This document shows, piece by piece, positions 11,871-61,122 of a stretch of 64,000 nucleotides of DNA (position 1 is its first letter; each line of letters starts with the position of its first letter). This DNA comes from Nitrosopumilaceae archaeon (GTDB lineage Archaea > Thermoproteota > Nitrososphaeria > Nitrososphaerales > Nitrosopumilaceae). The stretch covers positions 1,664,001 to 1,728,000 of the forward strand of contig OZ242274.1 in NCBI GenBank assembly GCA_965207375.1, given 5' to 3'. Both the position numbers and the translations under genes were made by a program. The notes under the pieces were generated by a model. It was given only the letters and a program-made list of their open reading frames with translations. It did not search any database and had not been told where the DNA came from.

Positions 11871-12020
11871 ATGTAATTGCTTATACTTGCAACAAGAATC
11901 CATAATTTCTCATTACTTTTTCATATCTGATGTATTCGTCAATCTACTAGATGATGTCAGAAATATTGGAATTTTTATCCATCTAAAACTCATAAATTCA
12001 AACATTAACCCATAAACAAT

Positions 12021-12698
12021 ATGAAAACCCTGATAATACCTGATATTCACACAAAATTTCAGATTGCAGAATCAATCATAAAAAGTGAATCACCAGACAG
12101 TATTGTATTTTTAGGGGACTATTTTGATGCATTTAATGAGACTGAACAAGACACTCACAATACTGCAAGATGGCTTGCAACATCACTGCAACAGCAAAAC
12201 AGAATACATTTGATTGGAAATCACGACCTGCCATACATGGCTGACAATCCAGTGTTTTTGTGTTCGGGATTCTCCGAATCTAAAAAATACATTATCAACT
12301 TGTATGATATACCGTGGAATAAAATGCACACATACTGCTATGTTGGAGACCATCTGTGTACCCATGCAGGAGTAAGCAAACAGTTCTTTGAAGAGCACAG
12401 TACAGATACTCTTAACGAGTTTATGAAACAATCAACAGAGGATCTCAAACATATTGATGATGTAAATTATTTACAAAAGTTTTTCCGTGCAGGAGTTTTG
12501 CGCGGTGGTGTGCACAAAAATGGAGGCATAGTATGGTGTGATTATAACGAATTTACGGACATTCCACATATTAAACAGATATTTGGCCACACAAGAGCCA
12601 CAAATGTAAGACAAAACAAAAATCACATCTGTCTTGATACTGAACTACACAACTATATCATACATCAAGACAGTACCTTAATTGTAAAAGAGATATAA
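12021..12698 (+). CDS. Calcineurin-like metallophosphoesterase
   Basis: DIH, GDYFD, GNHD, THAG and GHT motifs. Confidence 0.9.
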   Translation: MKTLIIPDIHTKFQIAESIIKSESPDSIVFLGDYFDAFNETEQDTHNTARWLATSLQQQNRIHLIGNHDLPYMADNPVFLCSGFSESKKYIINLYDIPWNKMHTYCYVGDHLCTHAGVSKQFFEEHSTDTLNEFMKQSTEDLKHIDDVNYLQKFFRAGVLRGGVHKNGGIVWCDYNEFTDIPHIKQIFGHTRATNVRQNKNHICLDTELHNYIIHQDSTLIVKEI

Positions 12699-13160
12699 AT
12701 TTACAAATTCAATAATTTATGCATGTGGTACAATTGAGGAATGTCAAACATATCAAGTTTAAGATTAGAAAAAATGGCAGTTAACTCGTACCAAATCACA
12801 TTATCGTACTTGTAAAAAACAATCAGGACACAATACATCAAAACAGAGCATCACAAAATCTACTAATATTTACAACACATACAGACACAATTGATATAGA
12901 AAATACACTAAAATCATTTTGCCAAGAATTGAAACAAACCCAATGAAATAATCATGTTAAATATGCAGCAGGTTCTTTAGGCTTTATTGCAGATATCAAC
13001 GGTTGGGTTTTTGATCAAATCATTTGAATTCATGTACTCTAGATAAATTGTTATACGTCAGATGCCACATCTAAAATCTTTGACAGATAATTTGTGTAAA
13101 AATGAACAGTGTAATACTAGTGATTAATCTGATTTGAACAATTTAAAAGAAGATAAAAAG

Positions 13161-13208
13161 TACGGTGCCCGAGCGTATTGGTGATTTATTCTTCTGAAGG
13201 GTACCGTA
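13161..13208 (-). ncRNA. Putative small hairpin RNA antisense to the adjacent tRNA
   Basis: 10-bp terminal stem; loop carries 10-nt and 13-nt exact matches to tRNA 13270..13279 and 13283..13295; minus-strand TTTTTAA ~24 nt upstream and a U-rich tract downstream. Strand is inferred. Confidence 0.55.
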
Positions 13209-13237
13209 TTTATAATGAGTAACAAGCCTGTTAAAAA
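13209..13237. promoter_or_regulatory. Putative overlapping divergent TATA boxes
   Basis: TTTATAAT (+, 13209..13216) upstream of the tRNA; TTTTTAA (-, 13237..13231) upstream of the hairpin. Confidence 0.5.
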
Positions 13238-13241
13238 CATT

Positions 13242-13325
13242 GCCGAGATCGCCTAGTCTGGTAAGGCGCTCTTCTGAAGAAAGAGCGTATTGGTGTACGC
13301 GTGGGTTCGAATCCCACTCTCGGCG
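13242..13325 (+). tRNA. Class II tRNA with Ser-type body and GAA (Phe) anticodon
   Basis: Complete cloverleaf: GCCGAGA/TCTCGGC, D stem GCCT/AGGC, anticodon stem CTCTT/AAGAG with loop CT-GAA-GA, long variable arm, T arm GTGGG-TTCGAAT-CCCAC, G73. Confidence 0.88.
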
Positions 13326-13447
13326 CTTGTTTGATTATCTGATAATTTCGTTTAACCAAAGATGTCAATTCTTTGACATGTGCAACTGTTAATGCGTGTG
13401 TGATAAAATGCCATGATGATTATTTTGTTTAAAGGTGTTTGAAAAAT

Positions 13448-13512
13448 GATTCTTCAGCGTTATCTGTTGGTCAAAGTCAATATGCAAATTTTCTCCGGAT
13501 TGCCCGTGCCTA
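13448..13512 (+). repeat. Dispersed ~65-bp repeat, probably a transposase 3' remnant
   Basis: Near-identical to 62945..63009; shares gattcttcagcgttatct with the IS-end remnant at ~18801..18840 (minus strand). Confidence 0.6.
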
Positions 13513-13926
13513 AAATTTCTTCAATTGTCACATAGTTTGTTCTTGTGCAGGTAAAAGAGATCAAAAATTTAACCATTTTTTCAAAATTTGTTAACCTACA
13601 TGATCCAAATGTATCACGACATGTAGTCCCATCGAAGTATCACAATGATGGGACTAACATATCAAAAATCATATACAAGATCAAAATTTAAACTACACAA
13701 AAAATTTAAAGATATATGGAATAAGACATCGGTACTGCTTACGCGCAGTACTGACAAAATGGCAAGAGTTACTAGATGGATGAGTACACGTGTATCTTGG
13801 AGCAAGGGTGCACAAGGGCGTGGAAACCGTGCCTTGAAAATACTGAATACATAAAATTGGTGCGGACCCCGCTAGAAGGAGACCGATCATCAATGTACAC
13901 TTTAGCAATAGGAGGCAACACAGGAC

Positions 13927-14223
13927 ATGAAAGACAAAAAATCAAAATGGAGCATAGATGAGAAGGTACGTATCGTACTGCAGACCTTTAACTCAGAGAC
14001 CAGTATGGCAGAATTATGCAGACAGCACAACCTGCAACCCAGAACAGTCTATACCTGGAAGGAAAAATTCCTCGAAGCAGGCAAAAGCTCGTTTAGTGGC
14101 TCCAATGTGTCCTCCCTTGCCAAACGTCACAAAAAAGAGATCTCTTCTCTTAAGAGGATAATAGGAGAGTATGCAGTGGCAAATGACGCTTTAAAAAAAA
14201 CGTTGGAGGGAAACAAAGAATGA
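13927..14223 (+). CDS. IS3-family OrfA (HTH)
   Basis: WSIDEKVRIVL...AELCRQHNLQPRTVYTWKEKF; A8 slippery run at ~14193 before OrfB. Confidence 0.85.
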   Translation: MKDKKSKWSIDEKVRIVLQTFNSETSMAELCRQHNLQPRTVYTWKEKFLEAGKSSFSGSNVSSLAKRHKKEISSLKRIIGEYAVANDALKKTLEGNKE

Positions 14224-14432
14224 GTGCAGTGTCTATCATGCACGATATCATAGGACTCAACAAATCCTTGCGGCTTTGCGGAGTATCAAAAAAGGCATGG
14301 TACTATACTGCAAGTCCAAGAGACATACCACCTGATCCGCAGGTACAAGATGCAATACTAAACATCAGCTCATCTAGGTCAACCTATGGAACACGACGTA
14401 TGGCAGCACAGGTCTCTAGGGTTCTAGGCAGG
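14220..14432 (+). pseudogene. IS3-family OrfB, truncated
   Basis: GVSKKAWYY...TYGTRRMAAQV, then runs into an IS5 terminal sequence via the microhomology tctaggcagg. The DDE domain is missing. Confidence 0.75.
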
Positions 14433-14471
14433 GTTATAACACAAACTAATATATCGTAGTTAGTGTTATAA

Positions 14472-15747
14472 CAGTACTTCCGATTATAGATCACAGGTCA
14501 CTATTTAGACAATATTTTTTGACATACAGATCCAAATAACGGAATAATCCTACCCATCTTAACCTTGAGAGAAAAAGATGGGCAAGATATCCCAATAAAA
14601 TCAGGAACACGAGGGTTTAAAGTATTTCAATCTGCACTAGGCAGGCTGCCCATTTCGTTTGGAACAGGAAACAACACGAGGTATGGACTCTCAAACGCAG
14701 TCAACATGCTACAGGTCATGTCAGTATACGGCGTGGCTGCCAACAGTGCACACCAATACGCTCCTTCAGGAATAGATATTCCAGGCGGAGACTGGCTTGT
14801 ACAAAAGATAACCACAATCGATCATGACGACATGATAAAACATGGAGAAAAGATGATACACGATACTGTTGATGTACGCCAAATGAAGCTGGACCGCAGA
14901 AACGGCAACAACCAGACGCGCGTTGCAGCAATAGACAAACACAAGATCCCACACTATGACAAAGACCCTGACATGACAGATATGGTATACTCAAAGCATC
15001 ATGCAGGAACATACGTCTTTGAAGCATACATGACTGCCAAGATGGTCTCAGGTGCAAAAGAATTTCATCTTGCAATGGTTCCAGTAACTCGGAACAAGTT
15101 TAACCCTGAATTCGTGCGTAAAACCATACAAAAATGCGATGATTTAGGTGCTGATGTGAACATATACTTGTTGGACCGTGAGTTTTATGCATCTGATGTT
15201 ATGGATACAATACAGAATCTCAAAAAACATTTCATAATGCCTGCAGTAAAGAATGCGGGAATCAAAAAGGCAATATTTCAATATGCCCAAGGAAAGCGCG
15301 ATGCAATATCACAGTATACCTTTGATAATGGATTTGAATTTAATTTGATCATAGTACCAAATCCCAAAAAACCTGATGCAAAAAATATCTTTGAGAGATA
15401 TCATGTGTTTGCAACATCATTGCCGTGTACAGATTCTGATGACATGTTGAAATACATTCCTAAAGCATACAAAACGAGGTGGGGGATTGAGACTGGATAT
15501 AAACAGGCAAAATCTATACGTCCATACACCACAAGCAAGAATTCCTCAATGCGGATGTTGATGTTTGTTGTATCTGTAATCCTATCTAACATATGGATAG
15601 ATTCGCGGATAGAGGTTGCCCATCAGACATACAATATTACACTTGTAGCCTTTGTAATGCAGATGGCTCATGCATATTTTGAGTGTCACTCAACTTGGCC
15701 GCCCCCCAATAAATCGGCATAGTCTGGATTTAAAATCGGAAGTACTG
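14472..15747 (+). mobile_element. ISH3-like (IS4 superfamily) element
   Basis: 14-bp TIR CAGTACTTCCGATT; 5-bp TSD TATAA (14467..14471 and 15748..15752). Confidence 0.85.
14565..15722 (+). CDS. ISH3-like DDE transposase
   Basis: AAIDKH, LLDREFY and YKTRWGIETGYK (YREK) motifs. Confidence 0.9.
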   Translation: MREKDGQDIPIKSGTRGFKVFQSALGRLPISFGTGNNTRYGLSNAVNMLQVMSVYGVAANSAHQYAPSGIDIPGGDWLVQKITTIDHDDMIKHGEKMIHDTVDVRQMKLDRRNGNNQTRVAAIDKHKIPHYDKDPDMTDMVYSKHHAGTYVFEAYMTAKMVSGAKEFHLAMVPVTRNKFNPEFVRKTIQKCDDLGADVNIYLLDREFYASDVMDTIQNLKKHFIMPAVKNAGIKKAIFQYAQGKRDAISQYTFDNGFEFNLIIVPNPKKPDAKNIFERYHVFATSLPCTDSDDMLKYIPKAYKTRWGIETGYKQAKSIRPYTTSKNSSMRMLMFVVSVILSNIWIDSRIEVAHQTYNITLVAFVMQMAHAYFECHSTWPPPNKSA

Positions 15748-15806: not shown

Positions 15807-16916
15807 TTATGCTATTGCCCTCCTTTGTACCTGTAACATCTTGTTGTAGATGTGTACCTTGAGATTAATCTCTTGTATGATGTTTTCCCACGTTACAGCA
15901 GATACCGAATCACCAAACAGTCGCTTAATTGATGATATTACTATCTCAACTATCCATCTTTTGCCATATTGCACCCTTTTTTTCCAGACCTTCCTGTTTG
16001 CCTCGCGTTCTTCTTTTGTCAGATGTGCAAATTTTTTAGGATCTGATACACCACCACCTAGTTGATCAATGGCTGCAAGAGTACGATCCCTACTGACACC
16101 ATCTGAACGCGTATTTGCATTGTGTTTTATTCTGATGCATGGTTTGATTTTTAGCTTTTTACATAATGCAAATATTTTACGCGAGTCAAATCCACCGTCT
16201 GCCCGCACGACTATTTTTAATTCATCCAATAATTCATTATTCAGAGATTGATATTCTTGCATGTCGTCTTCATCTTTCTGTGAATCTGCAATTGGATGTT
16301 CTGGGTCATCTGCTTTTTGACATGCTGATTGATCCTCATTTGATTTCTCTGCTTGGTTAATTCTGTCTGCAACATCTATACCGCAGTTTTCTAGTGCAGT
16401 ACACGTAAGTTCCTCAAACTGTGGGGCCTCACCTATCCTTTCATCTGTTACGCTAAAGGAGAGTATCTCACGCGTGTCAGTATCTACAACAATGACAAAC
16501 CTGATGAATCCGTGCTGTACTTTGTGCCTGTACCTGATGTATTCGCTTCTCTTACTGGGACTGAGACCAGTACCATCAGGTGCAAGATGAAGTGCACTCT
16601 TTTTGCCTTGTGCCGTAATGAGGTCATCTTTGATTGACACCTTGACGGTTTTCATTCTTTTTTGGATCTGACTAAAGCTTGGAACATACTCTGTACCTAG
16701 TGCCTCTGTTGCAAAGCCTTCTAGTATGCGATAGGATAATCCACAAAATGCCCTCATTGTTGCAAGAGCTAGTATTGTAGATTCTGCGTATCTGTAAGGG
16801 TGACCGTTTTTCTTTTTGTTGGCTCTTTTGAGTTCATCGTCATGATCTGGATTTTTTTTGGGATATATCATGCGTCCAACTGCTAGATATCTTGCATCGT
16901 TTTGTGCATTGGTCAT
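15807..16916 (-). CDS. IS5-family DDE transposase
   Basis: LSYRILEGF, PDGTGL, ADGGFDS and YGKRWIVEIVISSIKRLFG motifs; contains an acidic insertion. Confidence 0.88.
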   Translation of the reverse strand: MTNAQNDARYLAVGRMIYPKKNPDHDDELKRANKKKNGHPYRYAESTILALATMRAFCGLSYRILEGFATEALGTEYVPSFSQIQKRMKTVKVSIKDDLITAQGKKSALHLAPDGTGLSPSKRSEYIRYRHKVQHGFIRFVIVVDTDTREILSFSVTDERIGEAPQFEELTCTALENCGIDVADRINQAEKSNEDQSACQKADDPEHPIADSQKDEDDMQEYQSLNNELLDELKIVVRADGGFDSRKIFALCKKLKIKPCIRIKHNANTRSDGVSRDRTLAAIDQLGGGVSDPKKFAHLTKEEREANRKVWKKRVQYGKRWIVEIVISSIKRLFGDSVSAVTWENIIQEINLKVHIYNKMLQVQRRAIA

Positions 16917-17293: not shown

Positions 17294-17902
17294 ATGATGA
17301 AGATGCCTGAAAAAAGAGGGCTAGTAAGAGAAAGAATAATTCGAGTATTGCTCAACACTCCCGGCGGCAACCTTACAAAATACCGAGTAGCAAAATTAGC
17401 AAAAGCTGCATACTCTTGGGTTCATGACTTTCTCAAAGATCTAGAAAATAAGGGTTTGATAAAAAACACCAGAGTAAACTATAGAGAACTTGTTTCACTT
17501 TGGAGAGCGTTTCGGATAGTTCCAAACAAGAAAGAATACATGGTAAAAAATCCACTTGAAATTCTCAAATCTACAAAGCTAAAGTATGCACTTACCACAT
17601 ACGCAGCAGAAAACCTAGTACAAAAGTATCTTTTCCCATCCCGAATAGACTTTTACATTGATCCAAAAGACAAAGTAAAATGGCACAACATTCTGTCACA
17701 GGAGGGTCTTGTCGGAAAAGGAAATACAAGAATGCTGATTGGAGACACTCATGTTTTTTACAACTTGTCTGAAAAAGAAGGACTCAAGACAGTATCTATT
17801 CCACAGCTGATATTAGATCTACTCTTGGAGGGAGGACCATGTGCCGAGGCAGCAGAGATGTTAATAGAAAAGGAGGAAGAACAAATTGTATACAGAAAAT
17901 GA
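17294..17902 (+). CDS. AbiEi-like HTH antitoxin/regulator
   Basis: N-terminal wHTH; YALTTYAAE; C-terminal PQLILDLL.EGG..AEAAE motif; overlaps the downstream NTase gene. Confidence 0.65.
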   Translation: MMKMPEKRGLVRERIIRVLLNTPGGNLTKYRVAKLAKAAYSWVHDFLKDLENKGLIKNTRVNYRELVSLWRAFRIVPNKKEYMVKNPLEILKSTKLKYALTTYAAENLVQKYLFPSRIDFYIDPKDKVKWHNILSQEGLVGKGNTRMLIGDTHVFYNLSEKEGLKTVSIPQLILDLLLEGGPCAEAAEMLIEKEEEQIVYRK

Positions 17903-18677
17903 GATAGAAATCTCAAAATCAAATCTTTCAACTGTCATTTCAAAGGTTCAAGAACCTGTCTGTTTACTGGGTGGTTGGGCAGTTTACATTACCGTAAATC
18001 AAAGATTTAATGCCGAACAAGGAAGAGATTACATTGGTTCAAGAGACATTGATCTTGGTTTTCACATAGATGATGCTTGGTCTGATGAGCAATTGCAAAA
18101 ATCTGCATTTTCCAAATCAATTGAGATTCTAAAAGAGATGAAATATTATGGAATAGGATCACGTTTTGTCCAACACTATGATCTTCAAACTAAAAGATTC
18201 TTAACAGAAGAAAAGTCTAAAAAGCGTCCCAAATACGAGATGTTTGATCTGTTTGTTGACCCCGTTGTTGACAAAATCCATCCAAGGACAAAGATACTCT
18301 TGGGTTTGGATCCAATCGATGAGCCACTACTTGCAAATGTTTTTTCAGGTAATCAGTTTGTCATGTCAAGATACTTTGAAAAAGAGATAATGCTCCCACA
18401 TCCCGAGGTGTTAGTTTCTATGAAGATAAATTCTGTTCTAAACAGGAACAAAGAGGACAAGAGAATTAAGGACATTGCTGACATTTATTCTCTTATGTGG
18501 TATTCTAACACAAAATTTCCAGACCTAAAACAAAGTGTTCAGAAAATATGCAGTACTGAAAAAGCCTCATTAACAATTTCCAAGTTCACAGATCATGATT
18601 ACAGTTCAGTTTCTCAGGCAATAGGAGTCAACAAGGATGAGATTTCACGAGTAATTGCAGAAACTGCAAAAAAATAA
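17886..18677 (+). CDS. AbiEii-like nucleotidyltransferase toxin
   Basis: LLGGWAV, SRDIDL, MK and KDIADIY motifs. Confidence 0.7.
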   Translation: MYTENEIEISKSNLSTVISKVQEPVCLLGGWAVYITVNQRFNAEQGRDYIGSRDIDLGFHIDDAWSDEQLQKSAFSKSIEILKEMKYYGIGSRFVQHYDLQTKRFLTEEKSKKRPKYEMFDLFVDPVVDKIHPRTKILLGLDPIDEPLLANVFSGNQFVMSRYFEKEIMLPHPEVLVSMKINSVLNRNKEDKRIKDIADIYSLMWYSNTKFPDLKQSVQKICSTEKASLTISKFTDHDYSSVSQAIGVNKDEISRVIAETAKK

Positions 18678-50536: not shown

Positions 50537-52195
50537 ATGAGTGGAACAAACTCAGATCTCATACCAGTAAGAATGTTGACGCAATTTGCATATTGTAGCC
50601 GACTAGCATACATGGAATGGGTTCAGGGAGAATTTGAATATAATGCTAGTGTAGTGGAAGGGAAATATCAACATAGAAATGTAGACACATCGTCAGGAAA
50701 CAAAAAAATAGAATCACGAAAAGAGGATGAAATAATTCATGCAAGATCTGTTACGATTTCAGATAATAAATTAGGAATGATAGCAAAGACAGATCTGTTA
50801 GAAATACAAGGAAAAAGTGTAACTCCGATAGAGTACAAACATGGCAACGTACCAGATACTCCAGAAAAAACATACAAGGATCATAGAGTGCAGTTGTGCG
50901 CCCAGGCATTACTGCTTCGTGCAAATGGATACCTGTGTACACAGGGAATAGTATACTACATATCGTCCAAACAACGCATCAAAATTGAATTTGATGATCG
51001 TTTAGTAGCAGAGACATTACAAATGATTTATGACATGAAGAAGATGGCACTAGAATCTAAAATACCACCTCCCCTTGTAGATAGTCCAAAATGTCCAGGA
51101 TGTTCGTTGGTAGGAATATGTCTTCCAGATGAGACAAATGTTCTAACAGACGTGATTCAGATCAAAAACGATAACATACGAAGAATGTATCCAATACGAA
51201 ATGATTCTTGGCCCGTACATGTACAAGAACAAGGTGCGTATGTATCATTATTAGGGGATTCAATCAACATAAAATCAAGAAATTCAGAATCAGTAAAGGT
51301 CAGACTTCTTGATGTCTCAGAGCTAAGTGTTTATGGAAATGTCCAGATATCAACACAGGCAATACGAAAGATGTGTGAAAGAGATATTCCGATATCCTAT
51401 CACACGTATGGGGGATGGTTTGTAGGAATGATATCAGGAGCAGTTCATAAAAACATTGAATTACGAATAAACCAGCATAAAAAACACGTCAAAAAGACAG
51501 CATCACTTGCAATAGCTAGGCAATTTGTACACGGTAAAATAAAAAATAGTATTACCATGTTACGTCGAAATCACACAAATCCAGATGAGGTCATAATAAA
51601 TCTTGAACAACTAGCAGAACAAACAAAAACTGTTAAAAAATATGACGTACTTTTAGGAATAGAGGGCCTTGCAGCAAGACATTATTTTTCAGAATTCAAT
51701 GGCATGATAAAGGAAAATCGCGAAACATTTCACTTTACAGACAGAAATAGAAGGCCACCAAAAGATCCAATAAACGCAATGTTGTCTTTTTTGTATGCCA
51801 TGCTAGTTAGACAGGCAGTAGTTACGGTAAGCCAAGTTGGTTTTGATCCATATTTGGGCTTTCTTCACATGCCAAAATATGGAAAACCATCCTTAGCACT
51901 TGACATAATAGAGGAGTTTAGGCCAGTGGTTGCAGATTCAGTTTGTATAACACTCATCAACAACGGCATGATCACACCAAAAGATATGATACAGACAGAG
52001 TTTGGAGTAAATCTAACATCTGATGGACGCCGTAAGGTCATCAAATCATACGAGCATCGCATGGATTCTACCATAAAACATGCTATTTTAGGATACACGG
52101 TAAGCTATAGAAGAGTCATGGAAACACAGGCAAGACTATTAGCAAGACACATATCTGATGAAATTCCAATATATCCAATATTTAGGACGCGATAA
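50537..52195 (+). CDS. cas1: Cas4-Cas1 fusion (type I-G)
   Basis: Cas4 (YCSR, EYKHG, QLCAQ, CPGCSLVGIC) fused to Cas1 (GIEG, RRPPKDPINAMLS, GFLH, LALDIIEEFRP). Confidence 0.95.
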   Translation: MSGTNSDLIPVRMLTQFAYCSRLAYMEWVQGEFEYNASVVEGKYQHRNVDTSSGNKKIESRKEDEIIHARSVTISDNKLGMIAKTDLLEIQGKSVTPIEYKHGNVPDTPEKTYKDHRVQLCAQALLLRANGYLCTQGIVYYISSKQRIKIEFDDRLVAETLQMIYDMKKMALESKIPPPLVDSPKCPGCSLVGICLPDETNVLTDVIQIKNDNIRRMYPIRNDSWPVHVQEQGAYVSLLGDSINIKSRNSESVKVRLLDVSELSVYGNVQISTQAIRKMCERDIPISYHTYGGWFVGMISGAVHKNIELRINQHKKHVKKTASLAIARQFVHGKIKNSITMLRRNHTNPDEVIINLEQLAEQTKTVKKYDVLLGIEGLAARHYFSEFNGMIKENRETFHFTDRNRRPPKDPINAMLSFLYAMLVRQAVVTVSQVGFDPYLGFLHMPKYGKPSLALDIIEEFRPVVADSVCITLINNGMITPKDMIQTEFGVNLTSDGRRKVIKSYEHRMDSTIKHAILGYTVSYRRVMETQARLLARHISDEIPIYPIFRTR

Positions 52196-52198
52196 ATT

Positions 52199-52483
52199 AT
52201 GAGAGATTTGTACTTTGTATGTTATGATGTAAGTGATCCACAAAGACTTGTTAAAACATACAAAAAAATGTGTGGATATGGAGATCCTGTACAATACTCT
52301 GTATTTGCTTGTGATTTAAACGACAAAGAGATCATATATCTAAAAGATGATCTTGGAAAAATTTTGAATTTTAGTGAGGATCGTGTGCTTTTTATCAATA
52401 CAGGACAAATATCAAAGAAAAATAAACAAATCACTACAATGGGTGTGCCACTTAAAAAGAGGGAGAACGTCGTTGTAGTTTAA
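52199..52483 (+). CDS. cas2: Cas2
   Basis: YFVCYDVSD and GDPVQYSVF motifs. Confidence 0.95.
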   Translation: MRDLYFVCYDVSDPQRLVKTYKKMCGYGDPVQYSVFACDLNDKEIIYLKDDLGKILNFSEDRVLFINTGQISKKNKQITTMGVPLKKRENVVVV

Positions 52484-52652
52484 TGCAAGAGGCCATGTGG
52501 CAAAACAGATATGCACAAACACTCGCAAAATCAATATATGGAAAAATAACAACGACATTTACGTATTCATATGAAAGGATGAATAGTGCTAGAAACAGAC
52601 AAGAGGTGTCGGATAACATAATAACCAACAATGATCTCGGCATCAAGTCAGG
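52484..52652 (+). promoter_or_regulatory. CRISPR leader
   Basis: AT-rich non-coding segment between cas2 and the first repeat; the degenerate repeat is at the opposite end of the array. Confidence 0.7.
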
Positions 52653-55369
52653 ATTTCCGTAACGAAAAAGTTACGGCCCCATTGAAGCATTTTTAGAAAG
52701 TAATTTTTTAATTTCCGTAACGAAAAAGTTACGGCCCCATTGAAGCAGAGGATACAAAATATTTTCTAGTGGCTTAACTGGTATTTCCGTAACGAAAAAG
52801 TTACGGCCCCATTGAAGCTTTTTAATGTCGGTATATAGTAATAATGCTAAATCTTCATTTCCGTAACGAAAAAGTTACGGCCCCATTGAAGCAGTGCCAT
52901 TGGTACTAACCACTATATCGGTAGATTCATTTCCGTAACGAAAAAGTTACGGCCCCATTGAAGCATCGGTGACTTAGCCGAAATTTATAACGCCAATAAT
53001 CAAATTTCCGTAACGAAAAAGTTACGGCCCCATTGAAGCATTGGAGCAATCCAGGACGCCGTAAAGGACGGTAAAATTTCCGTAACGAAAAAGTTACGGC
53101 CCCATTGAAGCGGGTATAGTTTCCCCTGTCTTGGGGTGAATAAAGCCATTTCCGTAACGAAAAAGTTACGGCCCCATTGAAGCTATGTTATGCATTAGGT
53201 TATTGAGCTGGCAATCGGTGATTTCCGTAACGAAAAAGTTACGGCCCCATTGAAGCGTGTATTTGCCATGTTGAAATACGGCTCGAAAAAAACCTAATTT
53301 CCGTAACGAAAAAGTTACGGCCCCATTGAAGCAATATCAAAAACACACATGGGGATTTTTGGTGGTGCAATTTCCGTAACGAAAAAGTTACGGCCCCATT
53401 GAAGCAGATCAATATTCTCTTGTTTTACCTCGGAATATAGCTATTTCCGTAACGAAAAAGTTACGGCCCCATTGAAGCCAAAATTATCTGTAAAACCAGA
53501 AACTGAATCAAAGCCATTTCCGTAACGAAAAAGTTACGGCCCCATTGAAGCTAAGCCCTTAATGATATTTCTACCGTGATTGATTGCAATTTCCGTAACG
53601 AAAAAGTTACGGCCCCATTGAAGCGAGAATCGTGCGTATCTGATGCGAGGTTCTGGTATCATATTTCCGTAACGAAAAAGTTACGGCCCCATTGAAGCAG
53701 CTCTTTGTTCTCTTCTTTGACTTCACTATATAGCGATTTCCGTAACGAAAAAGTTACGGCCCCATTGAAGCGAAGTCGATTCTCAAAACCTGCTAAGGAT
53801 TGTTCATATTTCCGTAACGAAAAAGTTACGGCCCCATTGAAGCGAGTTTGTTGATATTACATAGCAGTCCACTATGGCTAATTTCCGTAACGAAAAAGTT
53901 ACGGCCCCATTGAAGCTCTAAACCTCGATTAAATCCCTCTGCATCTAATGCCCATTTCCGTAACGAAAAAGTTACGGCCCCATTGAAGCCATGTATCATC
54001 TAGTATGTCTTGATACTCATACTCTATTTCCGTAACGAAAAAGTTACGGCCCCATTGAAGCGTTGGTTAAAAAATCTTGAACCATTGAGTTATTTGGAAT
54101 TTCCGTAACGAAAAAGTTACGGCCCCATTGAAGCGAGAAGATTTGGAAGTTTTGTTAAAAGTTACAAAAATTATTTCCGTAACGAAAAAGTTACGGCCCC
54201 ATTGAAGCTTAGAATCATGCGAGAAAGTCAAAGAGGTCTTAAAAATTTCCGTAACGAAAAAGTTACGGCCCCATTGAAGCTCATCCAAGCGTAAAAAGAA
54301 TATCACCATACAGTATATTTCCGTAACGAAAAAGTTACGGCCCCATTGAAGCTTTAACTGAGGGACACAAATATTTTGCTCAAATTAGATATTTCCGTAA
54401 CGAAAAAGTTACGGCCCCATTGAAGCTTGCGTTGTTTTCCAGCCCATATCAGCCACAAAAGCTATTTCCGTAACGAAAAAGTTACGGCCCCATTGAAGCA
54501 GTATGGAGTGATAAAAAAGATATGGCTCTATGTGGGATTTCCGTAACGAAAAAGTTACGGCCCCATTGAAGCGCTAATAGGTTTAATTCACCTACTACGC
54601 AAGTTTGCCATTTCCGTAACGAAAAAGTTACGGCCCCATTGAAGCTGATGACCCGTGTGTTGATGGCGTTACCAAATTACTAATTTCCGTAACGAAAAAG
54701 TTACGGCCCCATTGAAGCAGCTAAGGGGTTTAGCAGAAATAGAACCAAAAAAAAATTTCCGTAACGAAAAAGTTACGGCCCCATTGAAGCTTGTAGGCGT
54801 TATCTAGGTCTGGGTTTTCATGGACGGATTTCCGTAACGAAAAAGTTACGGCCCCATTGAAGCGAGCCACAATAGACGCATTGATAATTCAATAATTCTA
54901 ATTTCCGTAACGAAAAAGTTACGGCCCCATTGAAGCAAACACTAACGTTACAGCCACACCAGCGCAAATCACTATTTCCGTAACGAAAAAGTTACGGCCC
55001 CATTGAAGCAAGGGTCTTATTTAGGTTCAAAAATCTACCCTTCAAATTTCCGTAACGAAAAAGTTACGGCCCCATTGAAGCAATCAAATTGTTTCCGGCC
55101 TTGTATTCATCCATAAATTTCCGTAACGAAAAAGTTACGGCCCCATTGAAGCGGAATGAGGAGGAGGCTTATATCAATGTCCACGTCTATATTTCCGTAA
55201 CGAAAAAGTTACGGCCCCATTGAAGCCTTTAGACAGACCATCTGGTTCTACTCCGACCCCCCCATATTTCCGTAACGAAAAAGTTACGGCCCCATTGAAG
55301 GTTTCTGAATCTCTGTGCAGTACCCTCTCTAATATTATTTCCGTAACGAAAAAGTTATGATCTTGAAGC
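52653..55369 (+). CRISPR. CRISPR array: 38 repeats of ATTTCCGTAACGAAAAAGTTACGGCCCCATTGAAGC (36 bp) and 37 spacers
   Basis: Counted manually; hairpin CCGTAAC/GTTACGG; ATTGAAGC 3' handle; spacers ~35-40 nt except the first (22 nt); last repeat degenerate. Confidence 0.98.
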
Positions 55370-55396
55370 ACATATGTTTTAATACTCATTAATCAT

Positions 55397-56614
55397 GTGA
55401 ACAATGTGCAAATTGAAGAGTTTTCAAGTATTGTAGATAATGCTAGCGCAATACGTCGTATCAGGAAACTGCAACCAGTTGGTGGTCAAGGAGATTACAT
55501 TTCACCACCAACATATTTAGACAATGAGAAACCAACACATGTTTTTGAAACACGTCGAATAAATAATAATAACATTACATGTGTCCTGTTAGATAGTGTA
55601 CAATCACAAGCTAACCGATTTGAGGAAGCTCTTCTTGCTGGAATAAGCTCGGATGAATTTCAAATTCCTAATGTAATGGTAGACTTTCAAAAAACATCAG
55701 TTCCTGATATTGGCGTTATTTCTACATTAAGTGCACCTCATCGCATATTTGATGCAATACTACGCGATTCAGAATTGAACGGAGAGTCTTTTTTGGACAG
55801 CGAGATTGGTAAAGCAGTAGAAAACTCAAATTCAACCAATGCTACAGATTTGTTTCGATATTCTCCCACAACCCTTATCTTTGGAGGTTGGAACTCCACG
55901 GGTAAAAGAGGGGGTAATGGTAATAAATTCCAACGATGTATTGTGTCGGAAATAATAGGGGTGAATGTGCCAGTACAACGTTTTAATGACACGAGCGGTA
56001 TTGAACAAATTATTCCTAGTGGTAAAAAGTCATCTAGTAGATTAGATCCGTTAGAAATAGAAAAAATGGATATTTTTAGACCAAAAACCATAAAAAGTGA
56101 TTGGTCACTTTCAAAAGATGAATATTATAACACAAAAACTAAACCGTCAGAGGTAAATCACGGTAATATTCCTCCAATGATTGTGGAACAGGGAGTTACA
56201 ATGGATTATGCAAAACAAGTGACAACGATCACACTTGCAGGGCTACGCCGTCTGCATTTTCCGAATTGTGATAATAATGAGGAAAAAGAGCGCAACGTGT
56301 CCGCATGGATGACTTTAACATCTATTGCTTTATGTGCTATAACACAACAAGACAAGATGGGTTATTCGCTACGATCTAGATGTGATTTATGTCAAGAAAA
56401 AAATAATATTGGATTTGAGGTGATTTACAGTGATGGTGATATCAAAGAGATAGAGATAACTCATAGCGATGCCAAAAGTTTATTGAAAGGTTCTGTAAGT
56501 CTTGCAAAAGAAAAAGGATTGGAATGGGAATCGCAACCTGTTAAACTTACACCGAAAGAAAAGATTGTTGATTTGATAGTAAAGTCACGAAATATAGAAC
56601 CTGACGATGAATAA
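55397..56614 (+). CDS. csb1: Type I-G Cas7 (Csb1)
   Basis: LQPVGG.GD.ISPPTY, LDSVQSQANR.E, APHRIFDAILRDS, LIFGGW, NHGNIPP and LRSRCDL motifs. Confidence 0.92.
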   Translation: MNNVQIEEFSSIVDNASAIRRIRKLQPVGGQGDYISPPTYLDNEKPTHVFETRRINNNNITCVLLDSVQSQANRFEEALLAGISSDEFQIPNVMVDFQKTSVPDIGVISTLSAPHRIFDAILRDSELNGESFLDSEIGKAVENSNSTNATDLFRYSPTTLIFGGWNSTGKRGGNGNKFQRCIVSEIIGVNVPVQRFNDTSGIEQIIPSGKKSSSRLDPLEIEKMDIFRPKTIKSDWSLSKDEYYNTKTKPSEVNHGNIPPMIVEQGVTMDYAKQVTTITLAGLRRLHFPNCDNNEEKERNVSAWMTLTSIALCAITQQDKMGYSLRSRCDLCQEKNNIGFEVIYSDGDIKEIEITHSDAKSLLKGSVSLAKEKGLEWESQPVKLTPKEKIVDLIVKSRNIEPDDE

Positions 56615-56653
56615 AATGACAGCCACATTTAATAAATTTAGGTAAAACTGCTA

Positions 56654-58195
56654 ATGTTTGCTCTAGAGATAGAATACTTGAATGGCGTTTCTTACGCAGC
56701 TAAAAATGAAAAAAATCATATTCCGGAGTGGCCGCCACATCCAGATAGAATATTCATGGCCCTTATTGATGCATGGGGTGAAACAAAGGAGGTTAAAGAA
56801 GCAGATGCGTTACGGTGGCTCGAAAAACAAGAACCACCAGATATTCTGTTTCCTTCAGCAAACCCTCGTCAAATCTTCCAAAATTTTGTGCCCACTTCCA
56901 GCAATGCGACAAAGGGACAGAAATATTTTCAGTCAAAATCAATCTATCAAATAACTTCCAGCATAAAAAGAAAACCCAGATATTTCCCAGCTTCAATATT
57001 GCCAGACAATGAACACACCGTATATGCAGTATGGGAAGATGTTCAACTGTCAAAAGAGAGTTATGATGTATTACTATCAGTCGTTAAACGAGTATATCGT
57101 ATTGGACATTCTGCATCACTAGTAAGGATGAATATAAAGATAAACAAGTTTGCTAGACCTAGCAACATATACACATATGATGAAAAAAATGGTAGTGTTT
57201 TTTTACGCTGTCCATATTCTGGACGGTTTGACGAATTAACAGATAGTTTTGAAAATAATACTATGAAAGAGGATAGTCAATGGAGACCAAATATAGCCAT
57301 AACGAGAGGATATCGTAATCCGCACAGTAGGATAATTCAGAGTAAAATGAGCAGTGACTGGGTTATACTTTCATGTAAGGGTTTTTTTACGAATTCACCA
57401 AATAGTAATGATTTACATGATAAAGTACAACACGTACCAAGTTTCACACCAGACATACGAGTATTTCCACATATAGCAAAAAAAATGAGAGATATGTTGA
57501 TGTCATACATAAGACCTGAATCAATACATGAGGTCATTTCTGGACACAGCACTAACGGCACTGTATTACAAAAACCTCACCTTGCCATATTGCCATTAGC
57601 TAATGTTGGATGGCAGAAATTTTCAGATGGCAGGCTTTTAGGTGTTGCTTTGGTACTTCCTAGAGATTCCACATATGGTACAGTAGAAAGGAGACAGCTA
57701 AAACAAGCCATCTCCAAGTTTTTGGAGAATAACTCGGATGTAAAAAAGCAGAGTCAAAGTACTGAAAATGGAATACTTAATGTGTCTGACATAGGGAAAC
57801 TAAAATTTTCAAACACCAATCAGGATAGAAGTTCATTGTCACCTGACAGATACGTGAGTAAAAGTAAGTCTTGGAACACCGTAACGCCATTAATACTAGA
57901 TCATTATCCAAAAAAAAATAAGAAACCAGAAGATATAGTGAGGACAAGTTGTGAAAACGTAGGACTTCCAAAACCCATATCAGTACATATTTCGCGACAT
58001 TCGAATGTTATTGGAGTGCCTCCGGCGTTTATTTCAGAGAAGGGTTGGAGATCACCAAAAAAAGGCCTGTTTGATAACAGGTTTGTATGTCATGCCTCGC
58101 TATCCTTTTCAGAGGATGTAGAGGGGCCCATAATCCTTGGTGCTGGAAGATATTATGGTTTAGGACTCTTCATTAAAGATAGAGGTGACGGATAA
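56654..58195 (+). CDS. csb2: Type I-G Cas5/Cas6 fusion (Csb2)
   Basis: EWPPHPDR.F.AL, ALRWLE, IGHSASLV and C-terminal GPIILGAGRYYGLGLF motifs. Confidence 0.92.
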   Translation: MFALEIEYLNGVSYAAKNEKNHIPEWPPHPDRIFMALIDAWGETKEVKEADALRWLEKQEPPDILFPSANPRQIFQNFVPTSSNATKGQKYFQSKSIYQITSSIKRKPRYFPASILPDNEHTVYAVWEDVQLSKESYDVLLSVVKRVYRIGHSASLVRMNIKINKFARPSNIYTYDEKNGSVFLRCPYSGRFDELTDSFENNTMKEDSQWRPNIAITRGYRNPHSRIIQSKMSSDWVILSCKGFFTNSPNSNDLHDKVQHVPSFTPDIRVFPHIAKKMRDMLMSYIRPESIHEVISGHSTNGTVLQKPHLAILPLANVGWQKFSDGRLLGVALVLPRDSTYGTVERRQLKQAISKFLENNSDVKKQSQSTENGILNVSDIGKLKFSNTNQDRSSLSPDRYVSKSKSWNTVTPLILDHYPKKNKKPEDIVRTSCENVGLPKPISVHISRHSNVIGVPPAFISEKGWRSPKKGLFDNRFVCHASLSFSEDVEGPIILGAGRYYGLGLFIKDRGDG

Positions 58196-61122
58196 TAACA
58201 TTAAGTATTAATGACTTTTCGAATTTTTTTAAGGAAGTTAATGGGGATCTGCCGTTTGAGTGGCAAAAAGAACTGGCAGAATATGTATTCAAGAATGGAT
58301 GTTGGCCACAAGTGCTAAACATGCCAACAGGCACAGGCAAAACCTCGGTGATTGACATAGCATTGTTTCACTTGGCTCTAGATGCATCACAAGAATCTGA
58401 ACGGACTGCACCTATGCGTATTGCATATGTAGTAGATCGACGATTGGTCGTTGATGATGCATTTGATCATGCATATGACATATACAATAAGCTACGAAAC
58501 CCAGAAAGTTCTAAAATGCAAGAAATTGCTGATAGTCTTAAAAAAATTTCATTCTCAGATAATCCTATTTTAGTAACAAAACTACGTGGCGGTATGGTTC
58601 AAGAAAGTGATTGGTATAAGACACCATCACAACCATTAGTTCTAGTATCTACGATTGACCAAGTTGGTTCAAGATTGCTATTTAGAGGATATGGCGTATC
58701 TGATTCTATGAAACCAATACACGCCGGGCTTCTTGGAACCGACATACTTTATATCATTGATGAGGCACACATGTCAAAGCCTTTCTTGGACACATTAAAA
58801 TCAATACAAAACATAAAACAGGAAAACAAATGGGTGGGAAGACTACCGTTTCAGTCCATATACATGAGTGCAACATTTGAAGAACAAAACAATGTGTTTC
58901 CTCCAGATGATCGTCGGAATCAACTATTAGCAAATGATGAGAGGTTAAAAGAACGTCTATCTGCACACAAGTATGTCGAATTAAAAAAAACAAAAGATGA
59001 ATATGGGCAAATTTCGGAGATTGTCAAGTCTGCATACAATCTTGCAAAACATGATAGTGTTAAGAGCATCGGGATTGTAGTGAATAGAGTAGATATCGCA
59101 CGTAAGGTATTTGATATCATAAAAGGGGAGTTGGGAAACAGATTGGAAACGGAAGTACATCTTTTGACTGGACGTTCGAGACCATTTGAGCGGGACACAT
59201 TCGTAAAACAAAAAATCACTCAGATCAAAAAAAATGATTACAAGAATGTAAAACAAATGTTTTTTGTAGCCACACAATGCATAGAAGTTGGAGTTGATCT
59301 GAGCTTTGATGCACTTGTAACTCAAATAGCTCCAGTTGATTCATTACGGCAACGATTTGGAAGGTTGAACAGATATGGTAAACTGAAAAGTGGTAGTGAT
59401 GCAGTGATAGTTGCTAGAGAAGAAGAGATTAAAAAGAACGCCGATGACATTGTCTACAAAAATGCCTTGGCACAAACATGGACATATCTGAAGCAAATGT
59501 CCAAAAGTAACAATGACAAAAAGATTGATTTTGGCATAAATTACTTTCCCAGCAATATGGAAAAACAAAATAACATGTTGGCTCCTCGTGCAAAATCTAT
59601 AACTTTGTTAAAACCATATCTGCATTTTTGGATGCAGACAAACCCACATCCAGATCCAGATCCAGATCCAGCACTATTCTTGCATGGATTGGAATCCAAA
59701 TCTGCAGATGTGCAGGTAATATGGCGCGCAGATATAACAGAAGACATGCTAATGTCAGATAAAAGCGAATTGCATACTAGCATGTTTATTATCGCACCAT
59801 CCCAGATCGAGGCAATATCATTACCAATATGGACTGTGAAGAAATGGCTTTCAGAACAATCTGAAAGTAGTCTAATTGCAGACATTGAAGGAATTCAAGA
59901 ATCAAACTATGTGACAGAAAGTGAGAACAACAGAAGACAACGAAAGGTCATACGATGGAGAGGTAAAAAATCAAATGAGACATGTAAGATAAGCGTAAAA
60001 GAAATAATTCCAGGCGATACAATAATAGTTCCTTCGACTTATGGTGGTTGTGATAAATATGGTTGGAATGCCAACAGTAAAAATCCAGTTCATGATATAG
60101 GCATGGAAGCCAATCTTGTCCATAGAAGATATCTTACCATGCGTTTTGACAAAAATGTGGTAATCCAAGCAAGTAATCAAAATACTTGGCAGACAGTTGA
60201 AAGATTGACAAAAAAATATGCAGATCTGAGTGATACAGTAGGATTCATAGATGAAATGAAGAAAATAGATGAATTCCCACCATTGTGGAAGAATATGTTA
60301 GATGAGATTAAGAAAAATCACAATAAAGTCAATTTAATCTCTGAAGAAGTTCAAGGCGAAGTTAGAATAATTGGATTGAGCTATAAAAAGAAGATCGAGG
60401 ATAAAACATTGCAAAAAATTTTTGAAGGACATATAATAGTGAAAAATTTTGAGGTTGCAAATTATCAACCTGTGACAGATGAAGAAAACGTACAACATAC
60501 CTATGGAAAAATATCTCTGAAGAGTCATTGCGAGGGGGTAAAAGAACACGTAAAAAAATTTGGTAGCGGAGTAGGGCTTGATGCCAGCATACTTGAAGAT
60601 ATAGAGTCTGCGGCATTTTTGCATGATGCTGGCAAGGCAGAAAAAAGAATACAGGCGTTTCTTCGCAGAAAAGATCCTGACGAGATGATCAAGTATGAGG
60701 ATGAACTTATTGCAAAAAGTGCCTATGATATAAAAAGTAAGAAAGAGTATGACAAATATCTCAAGTTAGCACATCTTCCAAAAGGCTACAGACATGAATG
60801 TTGGTCGGTGAACTTGGCAATAAATAGATTAGATAACATGAAGGTACATGACAGTGATCTAGTCCTGTATTTGATAGGAACACATCACGGATATGGCCGC
60901 CCATTTTTTCCTCAAGTAAATGATGATAGTGTAGAGCCTACACTGTTTACTTTTGATGATACTAGTGCAAAATCAGATTTTAATATAACACGTATTGATT
61001 CCGGATGGATCGAGAGATATGAACAATTGTATCACAGGTATGGTCCATGGAATCTTGCATATATGGAATCATTGTTACGCCTTGCAGATCATCGACAATC
61101 TGAAAAAGAGGCAAATGTATGA
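58195..61122 (+). CDS. cas3: Type I-G Cas3 (helicase with C-terminal HD nuclease)
   Basis: PTGTGKT, DEAH, MSAT and QRFGRLNR motifs; C-terminal HC...LHDAGK...HE...THHG...RLADH. The conserved N-terminus extends upstream of the track start (58312) to an ATA codon. Confidence 0.92.
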   Translation: MTLSINDFSNFFKEVNGDLPFEWQKELAEYVFKNGCWPQVLNMPTGTGKTSVIDIALFHLALDASQESERTAPMRIAYVVDRRLVVDDAFDHAYDIYNKLRNPESSKMQEIADSLKKISFSDNPILVTKLRGGMVQESDWYKTPSQPLVLVSTIDQVGSRLLFRGYGVSDSMKPIHAGLLGTDILYIIDEAHMSKPFLDTLKSIQNIKQENKWVGRLPFQSIYMSATFEEQNNVFPPDDRRNQLLANDERLKERLSAHKYVELKKTKDEYGQISEIVKSAYNLAKHDSVKSIGIVVNRVDIARKVFDIIKGELGNRLETEVHLLTGRSRPFERDTFVKQKITQIKKNDYKNVKQMFFVATQCIEVGVDLSFDALVTQIAPVDSLRQRFGRLNRYGKLKSGSDAVIVAREEEIKKNADDIVYKNALAQTWTYLKQMSKSNNDKKIDFGINYFPSNMEKQNNMLAPRAKSITLLKPYLHFWMQTNPHPDPDPDPALFLHGLESKSADVQVIWRADITEDMLMSDKSELHTSMFIIAPSQIEAISLPIWTVKKWLSEQSESSLIADIEGIQESNYVTESENNRRQRKVIRWRGKKSNETCKISVKEIIPGDTIIVPSTYGGCDKYGWNANSKNPVHDIGMEANLVHRRYLTMRFDKNVVIQASNQNTWQTVERLTKKYADLSDTVGFIDEMKKIDEFPPLWKNMLDEIKKNHNKVNLISEEVQGEVRIIGLSYKKKIEDKTLQKIFEGHIIVKNFEVANYQPVTDEENVQHTYGKISLKSHCEGVKEHVKKFGSGVGLDASILEDIESAAFLHDAGKAEKRIQAFLRRKDPDEMIKYEDELIAKSAYDIKSKKEYDKYLKLAHLPKGYRHECWSVNLAINRLDNMKVHDSDLVLYLIGTHHGYGRPFFPQVNDDSVEPTLFTFDDTSAKSDFNITRIDSGWIERYEQLYHRYGPWNLAYMESLLRLADHRQSEKEANV

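Follow-up and report, generated by a model that had tools for sequence, protein, structure and literature searches.

We report on a transfer RNA (tRNA) gene and a neighbouring hairpin in a window of 64,000 nucleotides (nt) from the genome of a Nitrosopumilaceae archaeon (contig OZ242274.1; G000:C1:1664001-1728000, where G000 stands for the assembly and C1 for its archaeal chromosome). The tRNA combines a serine-type body with the anticodon of phenylalanine, and the loop of the hairpin, whose stem ends 33 nt before the 5' end of the tRNA, holds two exact copies of parts of its anticodon region. Read on the minus strand, the hairpin may be the gene of a small RNA of ~55 nt that is antisense to the tRNA and possibly acts as the antidote of an all-RNA toxin-antitoxin pair. 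We hold this reading tentatively, at somewhat less than an even chance. It draws on modules of similar architecture beside alanine-type tRNAs with a foreign anticodon, of which eight were counted in the window genome and three in other Nitrosopumilaceae genera.

The stem of the hairpin consists of 10 base pairs (bp) formed by the left arm at 13161-13170 and the right arm at 13199-13208. Following the left arm, a 13-nt stretch (13171-13183, GAGCGTATTGGTG) repeats the 3' anticodon stem and variable arm of the tRNA (13283-13295). A 6-nt linker, ATTTAT (13184-13189), separates it from a 10-nt copy of tRNA positions 28-37 (13190-13199, TCTTCTGAAG; original at 13270-13279), which comprises the 5' anticodon stem and loop including GAA and G37 and shares G13199 with the right arm. 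In the repeat search both copies showed 100% identity, and for both the minus strand is complementary to the tRNA. For an 85-nt tRNA compared with 110 nt of upstream sequence about 1e-4 exact 13-mers and 7e-3 exact 10-mers are expected by chance. The order of the copies is permuted relative to the tRNA, and the repeat spacings of 112 and 80 nt exclude a simple tandem duplication. This arrangement had been described in a first-pass annotation made from the sequence, and all its sequence statements were confirmed.

On the minus strand the elements follow in the order arm, anti-10-mer, linker, anti-13-mer, arm, C and T5. A TTTTTAA motif at 13231-13237, ending ~22 nt before the hairpin, is a candidate minus-strand TATA box with a spacing analogous to that in the alanine-type modules. 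Directly after the hairpin lies a T-rich tract (13145-13160, CTTTTTATCTTCTTTT), a candidate archaeal terminator at the place where T5-T9 is found in these modules. The proposed small RNA would span 13155-13210 on the minus strand and read arm, anti-10-mer, AUAAAU, anti-13-mer, arm, C and U5, as suggested by the sequence, the folds and the comparison with the other modules. A 38-codon open reading frame (ORF; MFLTGLLLIINTVPF..., 13240-13124, minus strand) also crosses the hairpin, with the anticodon-complementary TTC in frame. It is probably a chance ORF, because its start lies upstream of the proposed transcript start.

ARAGORN placed the tRNA at 13242-13326 on the plus strand with anticodon GAA, and Rfam family RF00005 matched it with 55.7 bits, compared to a gathering score of 29. 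The molecule is 85 nt long and of class II, with a 15-nt variable arm, the discriminator G73 and a D-arm that resembles those of the four tRNA-Ser genes of the genome. A long variable arm and the discriminator G73 characterize archaeal tRNA-Ser; the window tRNA has both but lacks a serine-box anticodon (NGA or GCU). A tRNA-Phe would be of class I, with A73 and a short variable loop, none of which was found, whereas GAA and G37 are present. The window tRNA shares its anticodon loop, CUGAAGA with G37, with the canonical tRNA-Phe at C1:1921024. Two changes separate this loop from CUGGAAA in tRNA-Ser(GGA), so it is not the result of a single-base slip. The genome already encodes serine tRNAs with the anticodons GGA, TGA, GCT and CGA as well as the canonical tRNA-Phe.

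Seryl-tRNA synthetase (SerRS) reads the long variable arm and G73 and ignores the anticodon. Because of this, the window tRNA should be charged with serine yet read phenylalanine codons, i.e. miscode phenylalanine as serine. The first-pass annotation had called it a potentially toxic mistranslating tRNA. This fits the sequence as far as the serine-type body, G73, the long arm and the tRNA-Phe loop with G37 are concerned, while the acceptor identity follows from the general recognition rules.

To find out how common such neighbours are, all 68 ARAGORN tRNAs of the assembly were searched, with 300 nt on either side, for copies of their own sequence. In 12 of the 68 a direct match of at least 9 nt lies upstream. 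Eight of these 12 matches begin in the anticodon arm, and all eight belong to tRNAs with a GAA or AAG anticodon on an alanine- or serine-type body. Among the 44 ordinary tRNAs of contig C1 no upstream anticodon-arm copy was seen. Two broader measures gave no signal: genome-wide 12-mer matches of anticodon arms remained at chance level, and long-range duplex-folding z-scores did not separate ordinary from odd tRNAs.

Six of the eight cases are accounted for by one family, with intact members at C1:234286, 1341225, 1355322, 1407365, 1444064 and 1974998, each consisting of an alanine-like GAA or AAG tRNA and its unit. A seventh, degenerate member, whose tRNA has lost its 5' end and whose match has decayed, was found separately at C1:1233170. 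The family tRNAs have the alanine-like acceptor GGGCC.G / C.GGTCC with G3:U70 and A73. Their loops read YTGAAAN (GAA) in five of the six intact members and CTAAGAA (AAG) in 234286, and the five intact members submitted to Rfam all scored as tRNA with 46-63 bits. Upstream of each family tRNA stand a conserved A-run, a hairpin and, at -48 or -49, an exact copy of 11-16 nt of the anticodon arm. The alanine-like GAA tRNA at C1:823190-823261, which is not related to the family, has the same kind of unit at -215, with an 11-nt exact seed (14/15 with its flank), a hairpin of nine pairs including G-U (counted by eye) and T6.

The arrangement recurs outside the window genome. Among 251 Nitrosopumilaceae genomes of at least 90% completeness, four matched the alanine-type GAA pattern, namely G000 itself and G019, G205 and G388 from three other genera. 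A relaxed form of the pattern matched none of 201 genomes outside the family in an order-level scan, and viral contigs gave no match to the alanine-type pattern. In G019 an 18-nt exact copy lies at -54 and in G388 a 17-nt exact copy at -148. G205 has no upstream copy; its 14-nt copy is inverted and lies 54 nt downstream of the tRNA. Protein neighbours common to the module genomes were not found, so that what is conserved is the unit of two RNAs.

Antisense to the tRNA, all alanine-type units share one layout: an AT-rich box ~18-24 nt upstream (read by eye), a complement of 11-18 nt to tRNA positions ~27-40, a hairpin of 5-8 bp and a run of T5-T9, with a total unit length of 42-49 nt. This holds for the nine family-type units plus the unit at 823190. 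The T-run follows the hairpin on the antisense strand in all nine alanine-type modules listed, as T7-T9 in the family, and in the module at 823190 as well. The antisense layout is kept whether the unit stands at -48, -54, -148 or -215 upstream or, as in G205, inverted downstream of the tRNA. A T-run that is always antisense whatever the position argues for an independent antisense small gene. It speaks against the unit being a leader, part of a promoter or the terminator of an upstream gene.

These observations bear on the possibility that the window hairpin functions on the plus strand, either as a terminator or insulator before the tRNA promoter or as a 5' leader that competes with the tRNA stems and thereby delays folding or processing. 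On that strand the stem grows by three more pairs to 13 in all through G-U pairing, and the fold reaches -16.8 kcal/mol (z -3.2), a value attained by only one of 200 shuffles. The hairpin also abuts TTTATAA (13209-13215, plus strand), which lies ~27-33 nt ahead of the 5' end of the tRNA and is probably the TATA box of its gene; in ordinary tRNA genes of the genome a similar AT box was read by eye at about -32 to -25. The closest paralogue of the window tRNA, a serine-type class II tRNA with anticodon TAT (isoleucine AUA codons) at C1:349757-349842, has the same acceptor stem and a similar leader; a 7-bp hairpin likewise abuts its TATA box and is followed by a plus-strand T5. In addition, the copy of one stem strand could pair with the other strand and provide an alternative fold. 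In the window, however, only T3 follows the stem on the plus strand, the nearest upstream gene ends 460 nt away at 12698, and a terminator would have no need for a loop derived from a tRNA. A leader can also not explain alanine-type units that occur in any position and orientation with the T-run always antisense. We therefore regard a plus-strand function as quite unlikely.

If the units encode RNAs directed against their neighbouring tRNAs, the copies should follow the tRNA sequences. Over tRNA positions 27-43 in eight intact modules, the near-duplicate 1355322 and the pseudogene module being left out, each copy shared 14-16 of 17 positions with the tRNA of its own module, as against 4-14 with the others. 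Summed over the cognate pairs the matches amount to 118 of 136, which only one of the 40320 permutations of partners reached. This test is inflated by related loci; yet the arms of G019, G205, G388 and the G000 subfamilies differ at most positions, and the copies follow. The identity between copy and tRNA always ends at position 40-41; the copy can thus not fold into an anticodon hairpin by itself, which speaks against a structural decoy. In the degenerate module the match has dropped to 9 of 17, and judging by this one case the identity is not automatically kept by gene conversion. Several of the module tRNAs carry a 31:39 mismatch (seen by eye), which would ease strand invasion from the loop.

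Wherever the hairpin energies of these units tell the two strands apart, they are in line with the antisense reading. The G019 hairpin folds with -10.1 kcal/mol antisense and -2.2 kcal/mol sense, as it requires G-U pairs that are present only on the antisense strand. For C1:823190, where the antisense strand alone was folded, -9.1 kcal/mol was obtained, and C1:1974998 gave -6.5 antisense versus -4.9 kcal/mol sense. The remaining units are roughly symmetric, within about 1.5 kcal/mol, with 1407365 folding better on the sense strand (-8.0 versus -6.5).

The window hairpin shares several features with the alanine-type units. Its minus strand complements at least 10 nt of the anticodon arm (10 nt at positions 28-37 plus the further 13 nt), the hairpin is followed by C and T5 on the same strand, an AT box lies upstream, and the adjoining tRNA is a mismatched one of an anticodon-blind synthetase. 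From the sequence we infer transcription of the minus strand and pairing in vivo, along with the charging identity and toxicity of the tRNA and the role of the pair; a possible course of events is the following. The ~55-nt RNA would start ~25 nt downstream of the minus-strand TTTTTAA box, fold into the stem and end in the U-tract. Its loop would display the complement of the anticodon loop with the 5' stem (10 nt) and that of the 3' stem with the variable arm (13 nt). First contact would be made by loop-loop pairing at the anticodon loop of the tRNA, from where pairing would spread into the weak, A/U-rich anticodon stem and either block decoding or mark the tRNA for decay. As long as the small RNA is bound, the harmful tRNA would stay inactive, and it would be released once the small RNA is lost, as in an all-RNA toxin-antitoxin pair.

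A number of results weigh against reading the hairpin as an anti-tRNA RNA gene. Some of them concern the fold. The stem favours the plus strand (-16.4 to -16.8 kcal/mol) over the minus strand (-10.4 to -10.6 kcal/mol; z -1.9, with 8 of 200 shuffles as good), opposite to G019, and differs in this from the class feature of a hairpin at least as stable on the antisense strand (-10.6 versus -16.4 kcal/mol). The minus-strand fold is weaker because one or two G-T pairs turn into A-C: at 13167:13202 the plus strand has G-T where the minus strand has A-C, and a second G-T lies among the three additional plus-strand pairs. The first-pass annotation had cautioned about exactly this strand dependence, rightly as it turned out. 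Its suggestion that the loop could pair with 23 nt of the tRNA at once was not supported. Simultaneous formation of 10 and 13 bp inside a closed 28-nt loop is topologically strained and sterically doubtful. Co-folding of the tRNA with the minus-strand RNA in RNAcofold, which that annotation had proposed as a check, gave no gain in energy: the free energy difference (ddG) was -0.2 kcal/mol with only the 13-mer pairing, compared to an average of 0.0 for 200 shuffled loops, in a nested model that cannot score the permuted segment order. A loop-loop start at the anticodon remains plausible.

Further objections come from the comparison with other loci. The window has two seeds, permuted and inside the hairpin loop, whereas the alanine-type seed lies 5' of the hairpin. 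Sequence homology between the window hairpin and the alanine-type units is absent, and the link is architectural only. Among the nine alanine-type units themselves the consensus structure from RNAalifold on a MAFFT alignment was weak (four pairs, two of them compensatory, -1.09 kcal/mol) because the register shifts between genomes. A search of relatives for the pair of hairpin and tRNA had also been proposed. In a BLAST search of 13100-13400 against 40 relatives nothing covered the hairpin, with only T-arm and other tRNA matches appearing, and no second copy of the locus was found in its own genome. The window locus is thus unique, and the covariation of seed and target described above was obtained from the alanine-type modules. 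Indirect support for the antisense reading comes from the matching architecture of these modules beside GAA and AAG tRNAs in four genomes.

The serine-type relatives of the window tRNA point in the same direction. The hairpin before the paralogue at C1:349757 has no antisense seed, only a 9-nt match of opposite sense. Three other serine-type GAA tRNAs lack a partner copy: one at C1:1996875, its homologues on L062 and L064, and the viral L066. The first of these (C1:1996875-1996976) is a class II GAA tRNA with a 14-nt intron at the canonical site and, by our own reading, a canonical bulge-helix-bulge motif. It is conserved on two other chromosomes assembled from Nitrosopumilus metagenomes (L062 5130-5420 and L064 3100-3390), so a serine-type tRNA that reads phenylalanine codons may be an old feature of the group. 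The serine-type pattern hit 7 genome-contig, 1 viral and 13 metagenome loci; a tRNA was found in 5 of the 21 (L062, L064 and L066 = L067 = L079), none with a partner copy. In viral contigs the class II GAA pattern gave 31 stretches, in 7 of which ARAGORN detected a GAA tRNA; two of these were of class II (L066 and L118), and neither had an anticodon-arm copy. The viral contigs that carry serine-type class II GAA tRNAs do so at L066 4335-4421 (also L067 and L079) and at L118 1063-1149.

A different origin of the hairpin is suggested by its surroundings. The window locus is situated in a mobile island ridden with insertion sequences (IS). Transposase genes of IS type lie at 13927-14223, 14565-15722 and 15807-16916, the first beginning 600 nt downstream. 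In all four public contig-level sequencing runs (two studies) the segment 12700-13484 is present with 0 differences, and a multi-copy repeat of ~50-fold flanking depth starts at ~13444-13448, where the public contig breaks. At 17294-18677 a gene for an AbiEi-like helix-turn-helix protein overlaps one for a weakly AbiEii-like nucleotidyltransferase, which fits a defence or mobile island. In such a setting the hairpin could be a rearrangement scar, in which pieces of the tRNA were copied by template switching or illegitimate recombination and have not yet decayed, without having a function. The permuted order and the flanking inverted repeat might then be leftovers of a fold-back or a template switch, and the uniqueness of the locus, with no homologue in the 40 relatives or its own genome, as well as the better pairing of the stem on the sense strand, would be accommodated. 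A scar does not predict, however, that similar neighbours recur beside independent mismatched tRNAs and track their sequence across four genera. Both copies are moreover exact and stand in a perfect stem whose T-tract and AT boxes are placed as in the alanine-type modules, and no integrase was found nearby. Overall we consider a scar unlikely. The narrower idea of a scar left by a tyrosine integrase was rejected, since no module has a PF00589 match in its vicinity; such matches occur only at C1:151438, at C1:307448 and on contig C3.

The window also contains a type I-G/U CRISPR-Cas locus (50537-62039), ~38 kb from the hairpin. It comprises a Cas4-Cas1 fusion (50537-52195), an array of ~35 repeats, counted by eye, of a 36-nt unit (52653-55226), proteins of the GSU0053 and GSU0054 families and Cas3. 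This brings to mind CreTA, a type VIII toxin-antitoxin system. According to the accessible text of PMC8501985, its toxin CreT, a mini-mRNA, ties up a rare tRNA on the ribosome, and CreA is a guide resembling a CRISPR RNA (crRNA) that needs Cascade and matches the promoter. By analogy, the hairpin could be a degenerate mini-CRISPR whose crRNA-like product, through partial complementarity, directs the type I-G Cascade of the window against the tRNA gene and shuts off a toxic RNA, thereby making CRISPR-Cas addictive.

Several points agree with this proposal. Aligned with one gap, the left arm and its A-run agree at 11 of 12 positions with the part of the CRISPR repeat that forms its loop and 3' arm, and with a palindromic repeat, two repeat halves around a spacer would form a stem. 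The matches of 10-18 nt are of the size given for those between CreA and the promoter in the part of PMC8501985 available. Cas1 occurs in four of four module genomes compared to 46 of 121 sampled family genomes, and the long Cas4-Cas1 form in three of four compared to 13 of 121; G094 and G108, both unpublished, are part of this tally. The resemblance to the repeat is marginal, however, as its best local score of 17 was attained in 18 of 500 shuffles and in 72 of 1500 random windows of the genome, and an 8-nt repeat-like handle is absent before the segments. With the guide split and permuted, a single R-loop is not possible. The hairpin at 13.2 kb is remote from the cas genes at 50.5-62 kb, while other modules lie hundreds of kb away or on other contigs, the alanine-type hairpins do not resemble the CRISPR repeat, and the Cas1 of G205 is short, casposase-sized only. 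A CreA-like function thus appears improbable. As far as the source describes it, CreTA is like the locus in that two small RNA genes adjoin, no protein takes part, translation is targeted and the archaeal host carries type I CRISPR-Cas. The differences are that the presumed toxin here is the tRNA itself rather than a mini-mRNA, and that the partner matches the anticodon arm instead of the promoter, far from the cas genes and with marginal resemblance to the repeat.

Archaeal guide RNAs act on tRNAs, and the two antisense segments of the hairpin flank the unpaired tRNA residues A38-A40. The first-pass annotation had likened this pocket to an inverted H/ACA guide and had considered a guide for modification or processing; such an RNA, H/ACA- or C/D-like, would lead an enzyme to positions 38-40. 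This function is highly improbable. Neither an ACA nor an H box, which in H/ACA guides stands 14-16 nt from a two-sided pocket, is present. A RUGAUGA/CUGA pair, which in C/D RNAs brackets guides of 10-12 nt, is absent in guide spacing from both strands, the lone CUGA belonging to the anticodon copy. The order of the segments is the reverse of that in an H/ACA pocket, and the target residues are A and not U. In an Rfam search over 12000-15000, relaxed to E = 10, no guide family appeared at the hairpin, and only the tRNA reached the gathering score. The likeness to H/ACA and C/D guides is therefore limited to two short antisense segments around a few unpaired target bases, while boxes and an Rfam match are missing and the segment order is reversed.

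Returning to the anti-tRNA RNA gene, a more general proposal can be formulated. Nitrosopumilaceae might possess a class of all-RNA toxin-antitoxin systems in which a tRNA built to miscode, with the identity of an alanine or serine tRNA but the anticodon of phenylalanine (or leucine), is paired with an anti-anticodon antitoxin of 45-55 nt encoded beside it. Paralogues would be kept apart by diversification of the anticodon stem together with the seed, and the window would hold the serine-type version with a two-segment seed in the loop. We regard such a class as possible but, on balance, doubtful.

Its parts have parallels elsewhere. In type I toxin-antitoxin systems and plasmid copy control, short structured antisense RNAs are encoded next to their targets. 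The modules resemble them in pairing through a loop or a 5' seed, in paralogous pairs that diverge together and in a patchy multi-copy distribution. They differ in that the target is the anticodon arm of a tRNA and not an mRNA, no toxin peptide is required, and the partner is a separate nearby copy instead of being encoded opposite its target. Position 37 is the canonical site of introns and splits in archaeal tRNAs. Split and permuted archaeal tRNA genes are similar insofar as part of a 5' half is encoded apart and the 10-nt copy ends exactly at 37; here, however, the copy has no acceptor strand, a complete tRNA adjoins, and the pieces cannot be arranged into a bulge-helix-bulge.

Bacterial tRNAPro variants with other anticodons exist, and mistranslating tRNAs are also found in humans. 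For the human tRNA-Ser AGA variant G35A the accessible parts of PMC12993449 and PMC9956149 describe mistranslation with the same substitution of serine for phenylalanine. The likeness, as far as these sources show, lies in an anticodon-blind synthetase (serine, alanine) combined with the anticodon of another amino acid. The known cases are single variants or are paired with a special synthetase, and none is known to have a dedicated antisense partner; the tRNA considered here shares G37 with tRNA-Phe, and its kind is present in multiple gene copies in an archaeon.

A limited search of the open-access literature turned up no description of an antisense RNA devoted to the anticodon arm of a tRNA, and none of alanine- or serine-type GAA tRNAs in archaea. 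Within the limits of these sources, the combination of a tRNA with a dedicated anti-anticodon RNA gene is found in none of the closest known concepts. Should the reading be correct, it would be the first case of a tRNA as the regulated, possibly toxic, partner of a dedicated antisense RNA. The mismatched tRNAs would also be the first in archaea to look selected rather than accidental, because four independent lineages carry GAA, G3:U70 or the serine arm is kept, and the serine-type tRNA has G37. Programmed miscoding as a weapon or switch of cells or mobile elements would become testable, as would the disarming of a folded tRNA by an RNA through its anticodon loop and the orthogonality of paralogous RNA-RNA pairs. 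Further cases can be sought by a simple rule: a mismatched tRNA, a nearby copy of its anticodon arm, and then a hairpin and a T-run on the opposite strand.

For the proteins neighbouring the window locus, Pfam, PADLOC and NCBIfam gave no function except for the IS transposases, a DsbA-like protein, a metallophosphoesterase and the AbiE-like pair. The assembly itself is composite in appearance. On its contigs C2, C3 and C4 (2.1 Mb, 37% GC) there are tRNA genes of eukaryotic type with T-runs after them, as well as long minisatellites; these contigs look like host or other eukaryotic DNA filed together with the archaeal chromosome C1 (2.16 Mb).

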